Position numbers and translations under genes: made by a program | Notes under the pieces: model-generated | Database searches by the model: none | Seen by the model: the letters and a program-made list of their open reading frames with translations, nothing else | What the model was told of the DNA's origin: nothing | IMG/VR virus record: IMGVR_UViG_2545824644_000011 | Coordinates: 1 to 4,601 of that record | Length of the DNA: 4,601 bases | Strand: one strand, 5' to 3' | Source: a virus | Lineage: Duplodnaviria; Heunggongvirae; Uroviricota; Caudoviricetes | In this document: piece by piece, positions 1-4,601 of the stretch | How positions within the stretch are numbered: the stretch's first letter is position 1 | How the letters are laid out: each line of letters opens with the position of its first letter

Positions 1-289
<289 letters not shown>

Positions 290-710
290 GTCTCCGGCCA
301 ACGTGACGGTTTCCATCCTGTCCACTGAGGGCGACGGCACAGCAACGGAGGCGTTGCTTAATACCGTTCGCGCCGTTCTGAATGCAGAGGATACCCGCCC
401 GGTGGCCGACCGCCTGACCGTACAGAGTGCCAGAATCATGACATGGCGGCTGAATGCAAAACTGTACTTTTACCCCGGCCCGGAATCCGAACCTATTCTG
501 GCCGCGGCAGAATCGTCATTCAGGAAGTGGCTGGCTGAACAGGGGCTTATCGGTCAGGACGTGGCGTTGTCCGCCATTGCTGCCGCACTGCATGTGCACG
601 GTGTGCAACGCGTGGAGATAATCGAACCCACACAGAATATGGCCATCAGCGACATACAGGCAGCGCGCTGTGAGTCATTCACCATCAGTGAAGGTGGGCG
701 CAATGAGTAA
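290..710 (+). pseudogene. Baseplate assembly protein J-like (P2 gpJ family), C-terminal fragment of about 140 aa truncated at its 5' end by the IS insertion
   Basis: The translation ...VRAVLNAEDTRPVADRLTVQSARIMTWRLNAKLYFYPGPESEPILAAAE...LHVHGVQRVEIIEP... resembles the C-terminal half of P2 gpJ-type proteins, which are about 300 aa. The frame is closed by a stop at 285-287 inside the IS terminus, and the only available start is a GTG at 303. The stop TAA at 708-710 overlaps the next gene's start. Confidence 0.7.
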
Positions 711-1233
711 TTCACTGTTACCACCATCAGCCAGCAATTTCATGCGTTGTGCCGAAGCCGTCGGAACACGCATTACAGACATTCCGGTAGACCTCAACAC
801 GCTGTGGTCGCCGGACACCTGCCCGGTGCACCTGCTGCCTTATCTCGCCTGGGCGTTTTCCGTTGACCGCTGGGATCGCAACTGGCCGGAAGAGACAAAG
901 CGACAGGTGATTCGTGATGCATGGCTGATACACCGACACAAAGGGACCATCAGCGCACTGCGCAGGGCCATTGAGCCGCTGGGATACCTCATTCGCGTGT
1001 CTGAGTGGTGGGAGTTCGGCGGAGAACCGGGAACATTTACCGTTGAAGTCGGCACGCTGGACAGTGGCGTGACGGAGGAAATGTATCTGGAAATGGAGCG
1101 GTTGATTGCTGATGCCCGCCCGGTCAGCCGCCACATGACAGGGCTGAATATCATTCAGGAGATCCCGGGGGATATTTTCGCGGCGGCAGCAACTTACGAC
1201 GGTGAAGTCATTACCATTTATCCGGACGATTAA
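703..1233 (+). CDS. Phage tail/baseplate protein I (P2 gpI family), 176 aa
   Basis: ATG at 703 is preceded by AAGGTGGG (691-698) and overlaps the upstream stop. The translation MSNSLLPP...[71 protein letters not shown]...[15 protein letters not shown]... is closely similar to P2 gpI as recalled. The ORF track's start at 670 is probably an N-terminal over-extension. Confidence 0.85.
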
Positions 1234-1235
1234 GC

Positions 1236-3251
1236 ATGAGTACCACAACACGAAAATTTAAAACCATTATCACTGATACTGGTGCCAAAAAATTAGCTCA
1301 GGCTGCCGCGCCAGATGGTAATCCTGTCCGCCTGACTCATATGGCCGTGGGCGACGGTGGCGGCACGTTGCCCACACCAGACAGTAAGCAGACCCGTCTG
1401 GTGCATGAGGTGTGGCGACATACTGTTAATCGCGTCATCCTGGACGCAACACATCAGAACCGCATTATTGCGGAGCTGGTTATTCCTCCTGAAACGGGCG
1501 GATTCTGGATCCGGGAAATTGGTGTATTTGATGAGCACGGCGATTTGATCGCGGTGGGCAATACTGCCGAAAGTTACAAACCAACCGTTGCCGAAGGATC
1601 CGGACGTGCACAAACATTTCGCACCATTCTGACCGTATCCAGCACTGCCACCGTGGCGCTTACCGTGGATAACACCATGGTGATGGCCACAGTGGATTAC
1701 GTGGATGACAAACTGAAAGAGCATGAACAGTCACGACGTCACCCGGACGCCTCGCTGACCGCAAAAGGCTTTGTTCAACTCAGTAGCGCCACTAACAGCG
1801 TGTCTGAAACGCAGGCTGCAACGCCGAAAGCAGTAAAGGCCGCGTATGACCTTGCTAACGGGAAATATACTGCGCAGGATGCCACCACAGCGCGGAAAGG
1901 CCTTGTCCAGCTCAGTAGCGCCACCAACAGCACGTCTGAAGCACTGGCCGCAACACCGAAAGCGGTAAAGACAGCATATGACCTTGCTAACGGGAAATAT
2001 ACCGCTCAGGACGCTACGACAGCACAAAAAGGGATTGTCCAGCTAAGCAGCGCGACTAACAGCACATCTGAAACGCTTGCCGCGACACCGAAAGCAGTGA
2101 AAGCAGCTAATGACAATGCGAATGGTCGGGTACCTTCTGCCCGTAAGGTGAATGGTAAGGCGCTTTCAGCGGATATTACACTGACGCCGAAAGATATTGG
2201 TACGCTTAACTCAACAACTATGTCATTCAGCGGTGGTGCTGGTTGGTTCAAATTAGCAACGGTAACCATGCCGCAGGCGAGTTCTGTTGTTTCAATTACG
2301 TTGATTGGTGGCGCGGGATTTAACGTGGAGTCACCTCAACAGGCAGGTATATCTGAACTTGTTCTTCGTGCGGGAAATGGAAATCCAAAAGGTCTTACTG
2401 GTGCGTTATGGCGACGGACATCGGTTGGATTTACTAATTTTGCATGGGTGAATACATCCGGTGATACCTATGATGTTTATGTTGAAATAGGTAATTACGC
2501 CACAGGTGTTAATATTCAATGGGATTATACCAGTAACGCCAGCGTAACGATTCATACTTCACCAGCATATTCTGCTAATAAGCCGGAAGGATTAACGGAC
2601 GGTTCTGTTTATTCGCTGTATATTTCGCCTCATGAACTTTATCCGGTTGGCGCACCGATCCCTTGGCCATCAGATACCGTTCCGTCTGGTTATGCCCTGA
2701 TGCAGGGGCAGACTTTTGACAAATCTGCATACCCGAAACTTGCAGCCGCTTATCCGTCAGGCGTGATCCCTGATATGCGTAGCTGGACGATTAAGGGCAA
2801 GCCCGCCAGTGGTCGTGCAGTATTGTCTCAGGAACAGGACGGCATTAAATCGCACACCCACAGCGCCAGTGCATCCAGTACGGATTTGGGGACGAAAACC
2901 ACATCGTCGTTTGATTACGGTACCAAGACGTCCAGTTCATTTAACCATGGCACTAAAACCACGAATAGCGCCGGGGATCATTCACACAATATTCCTGTTG
3001 GCAACACTGGTGCTGGTAATGGTGTTTCGGCTGGTTATAACTCAGGGCTTGGCACTGGAAAAACAAGTAACGCAGGGGGGCACTCTCACACAGTAAATAT
3101 TGGCGCACACACTCATACGGTAGGAATTGGCGCACACACACACTCCGTTGCGATAGGTTCACACGGGCATACCATCACCGTTAACGCTACGGGTAACGCA
3201 GAAAACACCGTAAAAAACATCGCATTTAACTATATTGTGAGGCTTGCATGA
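1236..3251 (+). CDS. Tail fibre protein, 671 aa, mosaic: P2 gpH-like N-terminal domain, three tandem 44-aa repeats, divergent central domain, lambda Stf-like C-terminal tip with His-x-His motifs
   Basis: ATG at 1236 lies 2 nt after the gpI stop. The N-terminus (...[27 protein letters not shown]...[48 protein letters not shown]...) is gpH-like. The C-terminus (...[74 protein letters not shown]...[31 protein letters not shown]) matches the lambda side tail fibre terminus. Confidence 0.9.
1764..2132 (+). repeat. In-frame tandem repeat inside the tail-fibre gene: three units of 132 bp (44 aa), starting at 1764, 1896 and 2028; the third unit is partial and degenerate
   Basis: The units encode KG[F/L/I]VQLSSATNS[V/T]SE[T/A][Q/L]AATPKAVK[A/T][17 protein letters not shown][R/Q]. 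Amino-acid identity between units is high, while the DNA differs at many synonymous positions. Confidence 0.85.
3075..3180 (+). other. His-x-His motif array in the tail-fibre tip ([36 protein letters not shown]), presumed metal-coordinating
   Basis: The translation of 3075..3180 shows four consecutive HxH units at a period of about 9-10 aa. Similar HxH repeats occur in tail-fibre distal domains (T4 gp37 and lambda Stf family). At DNA level an imperfect direct repeat of about 27 bp, ...TTGGCGCACACAC..., lies at about 3099-3147. Confidence 0.7.
3238..3242 (+). promoter_or_regulatory. Shine-Dalgarno-like element (TGAGG) for the macrodomain ORF, embedded in the 3' end of the tail-fibre gene
   Basis: TGAGG at 3238-3242 lies 5 nt upstream of ATG 3248. 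The ATG overlaps the tail-fibre stop TGA (3249-3251), giving an ATGA coupling arrangement. Confidence 0.5.
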
Positions 3252-4150
3252 TTACGCTCATTCTTTCTGCACCAGTAACAGAAATGGCTGAAGCATTTAA
3301 GCAGGTATTTGCAAATGCAGATAGTGTGAATATTGTCGGAAAGCCATTTGAAACAATCAGAGAATTTGACTGCATGGTAAGTGCGGCAAATAGTTTCGGC
3401 CTGATGGATGGTGGCGTTGATGCCGCCATTACCGCATTCTTCGGTACTCAGTTACAGTCCCGCGTTCAGAATCATATTCTTCGTGAATATCTCGGCGAAC
3501 AGCCTGTAGGTTCTGCATTTGTCATTGAAACGGGGCATAATCATCACCCCTGGCTGGTACATGCGCCAACAATGCGTGTTCCGTTGACAATTGACGGAAC
3601 AGACGCTGTATATAACGCAACCTGGGCCGCTCTGCTTGCCATCTTTCAGCACAATAAAAACGCAACGACAGACATGAAAATAAAAACAGTGGTATTCCCT
3701 GCAATGGGGGCCGGATGTGGTCAGGTGCCGTTTGAAAGTGTTGCCCGACAGATGAAGCAGGCATGGGATAACTTTAATAAAAAAACAGAATCAATTAACT
3801 GGGAATACGCACAATCTCGCCAGTCGGCAGTATTTGGCACATATGCATACTGTCCGGGTAATTCCGTTTGCCGTTATGCGGATACTAAATATATTGGATG
3901 CGGCGATTATCGGACGTGTTGCTCTCGTTCCGGGCAAGTCTGTATTAACCCTGAACATCAGGCTGATGATGTACTGATACAACATCAGGCTAATAACCGT
4001 TTTCGCCATGGTTCGCATATACACCGGATTAATCCAGAAAATCCCGTAGGTAATGTCACCTCTGGCGCACATAGCCACGGAAGTAGCATCGTTATTGGTA
4101 CTCCTACCCATACGCTCAATAAACAATATTCTGTCTCTGATATTAAGTAG
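3248..4150 (+). CDS. Macrodomain-containing protein, 300 aa: N-terminal macro (ADP-ribose binding/processing) domain of about 180 aa plus a C-terminal extension of about 120 aa carrying a 6-Cys cluster and His-x-His fibre-tip-like motifs
   Basis: The single long ORF starts by overlapping the tail-fibre stop. Residues 43-61 (nt 3374-3430), [19 protein letters not shown], match the macrodomain signature (V/I)NAAN-x-L-x-GGGV-x-x-AI. Residues 148-161 (nt 3689-3730), [14 protein letters not shown], match the second signature (IAFPAISTGVYG-like). The C-terminal part has C202, C208, C218, C224, C225 and C232, then [36 protein letters not shown]. Confidence 0.7.
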
Positions 4151-4156
4151 AGGTGA
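4150..4156 (+). promoter_or_regulatory. Shine-Dalgarno element (GAGGTGA) for tfa
   Basis: GAGGTGA at 4150-4156 lies immediately upstream of ATG 4159 and overlaps the last base of the macrodomain ORF stop codon. Confidence 0.6.
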
Positions 4157-4158
4157 AC

Positions 4159-4601
4159 ATGGATTTCAGAATGAGTGAACAATCACGGACCATAAAAATT
4201 TATAACCTGCTGGCCGGAACTAATGAATTTATTGGGGAAGGTGATGCATACATTCCACCTCATACAGGTCTGCCTGCAAACAGTACCGATATTGCACCAC
4301 CAGATATTCCGGCTGGCTTCGTGGCTGTTTTCAACAGTGATGAGGCATCGTGGCATCTCGTTGAAGACCATCGGGGTAAAACTGTTTATGACGTGGCATC
4401 AGGGGACGCGTTATTTATTTCTGAACTCGGTCCGTTACCGGAAAATGTTACCTGGTTGTCGCCGGATGGAGAGTGTCAGAAGTGGAACGGCACATCCTGG
4501 GTGAAAGATGCAGAAGCAGAAAAACTGTTTCGGGTAAGGGAGGCAGAAGAAACAAAAAACAGCCTGATGCAGGTAGCCAGTGAGCATATTGCGCCACTTC
4601 A
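4159..4601 (+). CDS. tfa: Tail fibre assembly protein (lambda Tfa family), 3'-partial, runs off the window end
   Basis: Hand translation from ATG 4159 gives [147 protein letters not shown] with no stop before the window end. This is nearly identical to lambda Tfa as I recall it. It is missing from the ORF track because it has no stop inside the window. Confidence 0.9.

Follow-up and report, generated by a model that had tools for sequence, protein, structure and literature searches.

A macro-domain gene between the side tail fibre and chaperone genes of enterobacterial phages as a candidate counter-defence enzyme of the late operon

A 4,601-nucleotide (nt) stretch of phage DNA (the window: positions 1 to 4,601 of IMG/VR record IMGVR_UViG_2545824644_000011, Caudoviricetes) holds, between a P2-type tail fibre gene and the chaperone gene tfa, a segment of 909 base pairs (bp) where the corresponding junction of phage lambda has a single base. 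Our preferred interpretation, to which we give a probability of roughly 0.5, is that this segment (3250-4158) represents a late-operon gene for an ADP-ribose enzyme, spread by recombination through its two conserved flanks and counter-defence in role. Comparison of the loci described below indicates that the gene, which encodes a macro-domain protein, has long been an optional third member of the lambda-type Stf/Tfa host-range module common to many enterobacterial phages. Its open reading frame (ORF) lies within the late tail operon, whose gene order is gpJ-gpI-H-macro-tfa. The module is of the lambda Stf/Tfa type: by comparison with lambda Stf and other fibres, the fibre C-terminus consists of four HxH nonad repeats and then a conserved terminal motif, and a Caudo_TAP chaperone gene follows. 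The features on which the argument draws are as follows (aa, amino acids).

1236-3251, plus strand: P2-type tail fibre gene, gpH-like, 671 aa (Pfam Phage_tail_fib, three Phage_fiber_2, Collar)
3101-3249, plus strand: conserved 3' end of the fibre gene, the left homology arm, common with lambda-type empty sites
3239-3242, plus strand: GAGG Shine-Dalgarno sequence inside the fibre gene, read from the sequence
3248-3251, plus strand: ATGA overlap of the macro ATG and the fibre TGA, from the sequence and the ORF list
3250-4158, plus strand: 909-bp segment, with a single A instead in lambda-type empty junctions (alignments to lambda and phage 204576)
3248-4150, plus strand: ORF of the macro-domain protein, 300 aa and stop (ORF list, PHROG 2613, RefSeq match)
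3248-3832, plus strand: Ymx7-type macro domain, aa 1-195 (Pfam Macro, AlphaFold2 model, 1njr, substitution rates)
3833-3982, plus strand: Cys-rich module, aa 196-245 (alignment of close relatives)
3983-4147, plus strand: variable tail at the C-terminus, aa 246-300, bearing G-x-H-x-H repeats like those of the fibre
4150-4156, plus strand: GAGGTGA Shine-Dalgarno sequence for tfa, brought by the insert and the same in other E. coli occupied loci
4159-4601, plus strand: tfa of the lambda Tfa type, the right homology arm, incomplete at the window end (Pfam Caudo_TAP)

The flanks of the segment had been recognized in the original prediction as resembling the lambda stf-tfa junction, and alignment confirms this to the base. 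A megablast search of phage genomes with positions 3100-4300 returned lambda and many lambdoid phages, each matching in two pieces at about 93% identity. The lambda junction reads GAGGCTTGCAT-A-ATGGCATTCAG, with the stf TAA and the tfa ATG sharing one base, and the junction in the window reads GAGGCTTGCAT-(3250-4158, 909 bp)-ATGGATTTCAG; that is, the central A of GCAT-A-ATGG is replaced by 909 bp, and the breakpoints are defined as 3250 and 4158. The left arm (3101-3249) is 79-95% identical at the nucleotide level to lambda, phage 204576, and lambdoid prophages, and the stretch just upstream (2927-3100) is variable. On the right, the tfa arm is 92-93% identical to tfa of lambda and phage 204576, and the N-terminus of the encoded Tfa is 97% identical to that of lambda Tfa. 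The same HxH nonads and fibre end, Tfa type, and GAGG are found in lambda stf-tfa (flanks 79-93% identical to the window), in stfR-tfaR of the K-12 prophage Rac, in stfQ-tfaQ of Qin, and in H-G of P2. Where lambda has two genes joined by a TAATG overlap, however, the window encodes a third protein on the 909 bp that replace one base. Neither end of the segment bears a detectable scar or duplication, as the fibre 3' end compared with the macro 3' end, and the macro 5' end with the tfa 5' end, scored at shuffle level (p = 0.16, 0.33, 0.96).

Both ends of the macro ORF are tightly packed against their neighbors. The ATG (3248-3250) overlaps the fibre stop codon TGA (3249-3251) and is preceded inside the fibre gene by TGAGG (3238-3242), the GAGG lying 5 nt before the start codon. 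The stop codon TAG (4148-4150) is separated by 8 nt (4151-4158) from the tfa ATG (4159-4161), with GAGGTGA at 4150-4156. The original prediction had these positions right and read them as translational coupling on both sides; the ATGA overlap on the left fits this reading, whereas the gap on the right, with a strong Shine-Dalgarno sequence of its own, permits coupling and does not require it. The TAATG overlap of tfa and fibre is absent from the window, its place being taken by the ATGA overlap with the macro ORF, and tfa begins 8 nt past the macro stop.

Junction statistics were taken over all loci collected in the analysis, 64 empty and 18 occupied. Every empty junction (64/64) has TAATG, the tfa start overlapping the stf stop. 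The left junction of the occupied loci is ATGA in 13 and GTGA in 5 (18/18 in total), and the right junction is an 11-nt overlap (8 loci), a 4-nt overlap (2), an 8-nt gap (6), or a gap of 24-30 nt (2). A lone ATGA overlap is unremarkable; its conservation in 18/18 exceeds chance. The GAGG at 3239-3242, which precedes the macro ORF here and tfa in empty sites, is kept in all junctions examined. In occupied sites the macro ORF has taken over this GAGG, and the insert brings a fresh GAGGTGA for tfa. Because translation of tfa was ancestrally coupled to that of stf, an inserted gene must preserve tfa translation, and we infer that the tight junctions reflect this constraint, a gene at this position surviving only by keeping the coupling. 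The constraint explains them better than the stoichiometric register with fibre and chaperone that had been proposed as an adaptation, given that tfa overlaps the stf stop in the empty allele.

The expectation that the gene sits in the late tail operon with no detectable signals of its own was borne out. A consensus-based scan of the whole window found three promoter-like sites, where shuffles would give 6.5, and two terminator-like sites, where they would give 4.9; none of these brackets the macro ORF. No stable hairpin was detected at either junction, both junction RNAs folding no better than shuffles (z = +0.6 and +1.3), and an Rfam search gave no match. TGT-N12-ACA is the half-site pattern of P2 late promoters (Ogr/Delta), and a lone copy occurs at 4054-4071, inside the macro ORF and about 90 nt before the tfa ATG; it was rejected as an Ogr-type late promoter, being at chance level (about 1.8 expected in the window). 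The GC content is 0.39-0.50 across the insert and 0.41-0.52 in the adjoining fibre tip and tfa. Judged from this arrangement, the macro gene is probably transcribed only with the late tail genes, beside fibre and chaperone.

The encoded protein has a well-defined macro domain. Pfam Macro (PF01661) matches aa 44-169 with 68.1 bits against a cut-off of 22, covering the whole profile. The ligand signature, N48-x6-G55-G56-V57-D58 together with the phosphate-binding G154-A-G-C-G158 loop, is intact in its ADP-ribose-binding and catalytic residues. Close relatives share it without variation, and among 53 diverse relatives N48, G56, D58, and G158 vary little or not at all. An AlphaFold2 model built on the 53-sequence alignment has a predicted local distance difference test score (pLDDT) above 94 for aa 1-199, and every top match of this model in a Foldseek search of the PDB is a macro domain with the three-layer alpha/beta/alpha fold. 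This model supersedes a poor one (pLDDT 54) obtained from 16 close sequences. The closest solved relative is 1njr (profile E value 2e-13; Foldseek E value 2e-11, template modeling score 0.57 on the target), which, with 1txz and 1ty8, represents the yeast ADP-ribose-1''-monophosphatase Ymx7/YMR087W, a cellular enzyme tied to a by-product of tRNA splicing. The N-x6-GG-x-D motif and the glycine-rich loop align between the two proteins at about 20% identity; Ymx7, however, lacks the Cys/HxH extension and the phage context. The ratio of nonsynonymous to synonymous substitution rates (dN/dS) of the macro domain, 0.07-0.15, denotes strong purifying selection. An active enzyme that processes ADP-ribose is what the conserved ligand motifs and the strong constraint together suggest.

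In an exhaustive search, the macro core proved to belong to a widespread subfamily of standalone proteins of about 200 aa. The same subfamily, at 44-50% identity over about 190 aa, also occurs in proteins with WD40, with rhodanese and dual-specificity phosphatase, or with RRM domains.

What sets the phage proteins apart is their C-terminal extension. In aa 196-245, four cysteines (C202, C208, C225, and C232) are invariant or nearly so; this module is found only in the phage-module clade and is missing from the standalone macro relatives. It evolves under constraint like that of the macro domain (dN/dS 0.09-0.13; 0.07-0.15 for aa 1-245 as a whole). Pfam and NCBIfam contain no family matching the module or the rest of the C-terminal part, and a word-index search with aa 193-300 for the same domain elsewhere returned only fragments of the same gene. 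The tail that follows (aa 246-300) is under relaxed selection (dN/dS 0.4-0.6), has a pLDDT below 40, and contains G-x-H-x-H units whose number runs from one to four across the family, spaced by 9, 11, or 18 residues as compared with a regular 9 in the fibre; one repeat of the window copy is degenerate (GTPTHT). A hidden Markov model (HMM) of the fibre HxH repeats scored above all composition-matched shuffles for 13/19 and 8/21 family members, the window copy not among them. The E value is 0.03 for the window's macro protein against its own fibre in BLASTP and about 0.8 for PF03335 in relatives. The tail was also considered as a decayed whole fibre C-terminus and rejected as such, because an HMM of the 58-aa fibre end aligns over the HxH units only and never over the terminal motif.

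A 1-nt insertion or deletion distinguishes the window (4125-4150) from the P2-like phage Chuche (about 6990-7034), CAATATT standing against CAATAATT. It makes the ORF 11 codons shorter in Chuche and in 289-aa variants from E. coli, E. albertii, and E. fergusonii, and beyond it the downstream DNA is conserved whatever the reading frame, in the 289-aa and 300-aa forms alike.

The position between fibre and tfa is occupied in a minority of loci only. The flanks were found in 4119 of 5426 complete E. coli genomes (76%) and the insert in 127 of the 5426. A scan of IMG/VR for the conserved fibre end gave 104 loci, of which 98 continue with Tfa as the next ORF and 6 with the macro protein. About 45 E. 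coli partial matches, sampled across the spread, were all plain empty junctions, including Rac and Qin of K-12, and no other cargo was seen at the junction in these or in the 104 IMG/VR loci. The fibre-macro-tfa trio is nevertheless shared by very different phages: P2-like prophages and Chuche; lambdoid prophages, where the genes run gpJ-lom-stf-macro-tfa; a linear lambdoid phage-plasmid of 47.6 kb; Salmonella prophages whose myoviral baseplate is different and not of the P2 kind; one Erwinia prophage; and Gifsy-1 (STM2588.1n) and the P2-like Salmonella phages SEN4 and SEN5. The copies in Gifsy-1, where the product is annotated as "conserved hypothetical protein; contains pfam01661, Macro", and in SEN4 and SEN5 are orthologues at about 68% aa identity (tblastn), in the same place between the side tail fibre gene and tfa and with the same overlapping start. 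They differ in length (274 aa), in a 3' end that overlaps the tfa ATG by 11 nt rather than leaving an 8-nt gap, and in the number of HxH repeats. As a family, the ORF corresponds to PHROG 2613 (full length, E value 1e-145), where it is of unknown function, and it is 99% identical to a RefSeq "macro domain-containing protein". When the E. coli copy is compared with those that Salmonella and Erwinia have at the same position, the synonymous substitution rate (dS) is saturated, so the trio must be old. That fibre-chaperone pairs of this family might carry a third gene throughout, which would have spoken against an insertion, is thus partly borne out, since the trio occurs in at least five phage backbones, yet as the minority allele.

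Two remnants or derivatives of the gene were noted. Salmonella phage SEN34 carries the Cys module alone (4001-4183; 59% identity to aa 184-244), apparently from a decayed macro gene, with an acyltransferase gene before it and the genes for fibre and chaperone farther upstream. A 463-aa protein predicted from a Logan contig joins ParM/StbA-like domains to 80% of the macro protein at 99% identity; a deletion or a chimeric assembly in a related prophage probably accounts for this fusion.

How the gene reached so many backbones is suggested by its flanks. E. coli cassettes about 95% identical to one another lie behind fibres whose variable region (2927-3100) is unrelated, and occupied loci were searched for a Tfa or fibre tip peculiar to them, with none found, the Tfa being of the ordinary lambda type. 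We infer that homologous recombination in the two conserved arms, the 3' end of the fibre gene and the 5' end of tfa, has spread the gene; site-specific insertion does not fit. Recombination through these two arms would explain the near-identical copies behind different fibre bodies, and the position between the most widely shared homology arms of enterobacterial prophages would explain the spread of the gene. The original prediction of a precise cassette insertion therefore holds as a presence/absence difference exact to the gene boundary and fails as a one-off local event, the trio being found in many backbones.

A recent insertion into the H-G junction of this particular prophage, site-specific or illegitimate, as originally envisaged, would account for breakpoints that are base-exact relative to lambda. 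It is contradicted by identical junctions in unrelated backbones and genera and by synonymous sites saturated between the E. coli and the Salmonella or Erwinia copies at the same position; the ends show no duplication, scar, or repeat, there is no associated recombinase, and we regard such an event as hardly credible. The gene could instead be a moron for lysogenic conversion or defence. The lysogen would then express it either from a cryptic promoter within the 3' end of the fibre gene or through read-through, such as from lom in lambdoid contexts, and the host would gain protection, one way being the reversal of ADP-ribosylation that superinfecting phages carry out. What it shares with morons is that it is additional to the conserved genes, sits at one fixed gene boundary, and is found in a minority of phages that are otherwise collinear, being present or absent between the same flanking genes; it is also intact, and under purifying selection, where the prophage itself is defective (the window and strain F8704-2). 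Morons, however, have an autonomous promoter and terminator, and the window gene has neither by the consensus-based scan and is translationally embedded in the late operon. Promoter- or terminator-like elements do not exceed shuffles, intergenic space is lacking, the start codon lies inside the fibre gene, the single TGT-N12-ACA is at chance level and downstream of the macro start, and base composition appears similar to that of fibre tip and tfa; lysogen expression is accordingly very unlikely. Somewhat less remote, although still quite improbable, is that a housekeeping-type ADP-ribose-1''-phosphate phosphatase gene has hitch-hiked between widely shared arms and benefits the phage little if at all. 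Such a metabolic enzyme is indeed its nearest solved relative, the arms occur in 76% of E. coli genomes and so place the gene where horizontal transfer is maximal, its frequency is low (2-6%), and it is not associated with a particular fibre tip or Tfa type. Strong purifying selection across genera with saturated dS, acquisition of a clade-specific conserved Cys module, and retention of the trio in at least five phage backbones argue against neutrality.

The main rival, ahead of both the lysogen-expressed moron and the neutral hitch-hiker, is that the protein is a fibre accessory or second Tfa client. It would then be a physical part of the side tail fibre apparatus, its HxH repeats forming a metal-binding trimeric stalk that is perhaps folded by Tfa or docked on fibre or Tfa, and the macro domain could travel with the virion, where a surface ligand might be its target for binding or modification, or where it would be on hand when infection begins. 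The Cys/HxH extension occurs only in macro proteins encoded between fibre and tfa; the fibre-form G-x-H-x-H repeats of many members beat composition-matched shuffles; a tail disordered in the monomer model is what an obligate oligomer would give; and the place directly before the chaperone gene is kept in all backbones. Virion-borne macro proteins have also been predicted in myoviruses (PMC9503650). Yet the HxH tail is the least constrained part of the protein, with dN/dS of 0.4-0.6, one to four repeats, and a 1-nt indel that alters the last 11 residues; the window copy does not rise above shuffles; the tail lacks the conserved fibre terminal motif; the Tfa of occupied loci is an ordinary lambda type; and database labels such as "tail protein" reflect context rather than data. 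We know of no extracellular ligand for a macro domain, which also counts against a structural role. Overall, we consider a fibre accessory unlikely, although it deserves more weight than the other alternatives.

Returning to the late-operon ADP-ribose enzyme, its role is probably counter-defence against immunity based on nicotinamide adenine dinucleotide (NAD+) or ADP-ribose; this step is the weakest link of our interpretation. As an ADP-ribose hydrolase or binder, the protein would act late in infection, or after carriage with virions, against host ADP-ribosylation of phage macromolecules or against ADP-ribose-derived alarm signals, and would thereby widen host range from within the module that governs adsorption specificity. 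Precedents come from other phages: AdfM (PhiKZ gp104, PhiPA3 gp108) removes the ADP-ribose that DarT2 attaches to DNA (PMC13309987), and phage Macro, NADAR, and Nudix genes located among morphogenesis genes have been predicted to counter NAD-derived signals (PMC9503650). AdfM is like the window gene in being a phage-encoded macro-domain protein, in its case working against an ADP-ribosylating defence (PMC13309987). AdfM and bacterial DarG2 nevertheless belong to another macro subfamily, DarG models scoring far below threshold for the window protein, and AdfM comes from jumbo phages and is imported into the phage nucleus, unlike a protein of a tail-fibre module.

Several points weigh against a counter-defence function. 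The nearest solved relative is a phosphatase of the housekeeping type acting on ADP-ribose-1''-phosphate, and the protein is not DarG-like (NCBIfam antitoxin_DarG 12.1 bits against a cut-off of 250; PADLOC DarG model E value 0.007 across 39 residues only). Expression with the late genes would come at a poor time for a classical anti-defence protein, except one borne by the virion, and packaging is putative; in this host, moreover, the late operon is broken upstream by IS100, which makes late-operon expression doubtful. Only 2-6% of modules carry the gene, so any benefit is conditional. The only expression data found concern the predicted operon STM2586-STM2587-STM2588, in which one of three genes was mutagen-induced 3.1-fold on a microarray, and are too weak to use. 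A literature search found no paper describing the three-gene module or testing the protein, and the three macro-positive P2-like prophages show no linkage to Thoeris.

Thoeris linkage was considered from the prophage of E. coli H3, the closest intact relative of the window prophage, and rejected: H3 has ThsA/ThsB, and the two other macro-positive P2-like prophages carry GapS6a or DUF3800 there. The H3 system, at 24359-26274 next to ogr, is a type I Thoeris with a TIR ThsB and a SIR2 ThsA (PADLOC E values 3e-70 and 6e-203).

A more specific form of the counter-defence function can be drawn from Pseudomonas N4-like phages, in which side tail fibres folded by chaperones reportedly decide how sensitive the phages are to type II Thoeris (TIR, histidine-ADP-ribose signal) (bioRxiv 10.64898/2026.06.04.730250). 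By analogy, the macro protein could be a trigger-linked antidote that destroys or sequesters an ADP-ribose alarm signal when and where the fibre trigger is made, with the HxH tail perhaps tethering it to fibre or Tfa. We offer this as a speculation with little chance of being correct; if it were, it would represent a new class of counter-defence wired into the very module that sets the defence off.

The macro annotation itself was known from RefSeq, Gifsy-1, and PHROG 2613; what is unusual is the embedding in the tail operon and the fibre-like tail on a phage macro accessory enzyme. If the function proposed here is true, then the side-tail-fibre module has two host-range determinants, adsorption specificity and an enzyme that counters ADP-ribose-based immunity after entry or at a late stage, and unrelated phages exchange both at once by recombination. 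It would likewise assign a role to the STM2588.1n gene of Gifsy-1, also present in about 2% of E. coli genomes. More generally, accessory genes can live in an essential, translationally coupled operon without signals of their own.

Upstream of the fibre gene, the window contains three further features.

1-289, plus strand: right end of an IS21-family insertion sequence (IS) element, IS100kyp, with the C-terminus of IstB, stop codon at 221-223 (Pfam IstB_IS21, E value 7.9e-31)
303-710: 3' part of the P2-type baseplate gene J
703-1233: gpI

The IS100kyp end is 100% identical to annotated IS100kyp istB ends. It abuts gene J at 289/290, having removed the 5' part of J upstream in the same late operon, and homology to intact P2-like prophages starts at base 290. 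No complete E. coli genome in the collection (5426) shares this junction. Because the element interrupts the late operon upstream of the macro gene, the prophage of this window is probably defective in its host, and expression of the ORF there cannot be assumed. The terminal TTGACA of IS100kyp (284-289) is a perfect outward -35 hexamer with no usable -10 after it.

The gene downstream of tfa differs between backbones. In 3/3 macro-positive P2-like prophages, a serine acetyltransferase gene lies on the opposite strand directly after tfa, in the P2 Z/fun slot (16682-17254 in H3, 14525-15097 and 15682-16254 in the others). Lambdoid occupied loci have, after tfa and on the opposite strand, a gene of the Pin/Gin-type recombinase family (9731-10321; 15733-16323), like Rac and Qin.

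The fibre body itself appears mosaic. It includes three tandem Phage_fiber_2 repeats (1745-2160 and 2159-2641), and its center (about 2159-2641) is unmatched in the fibres of the H3 prophage and Chuche, which are 95-97% identical to it elsewhere.

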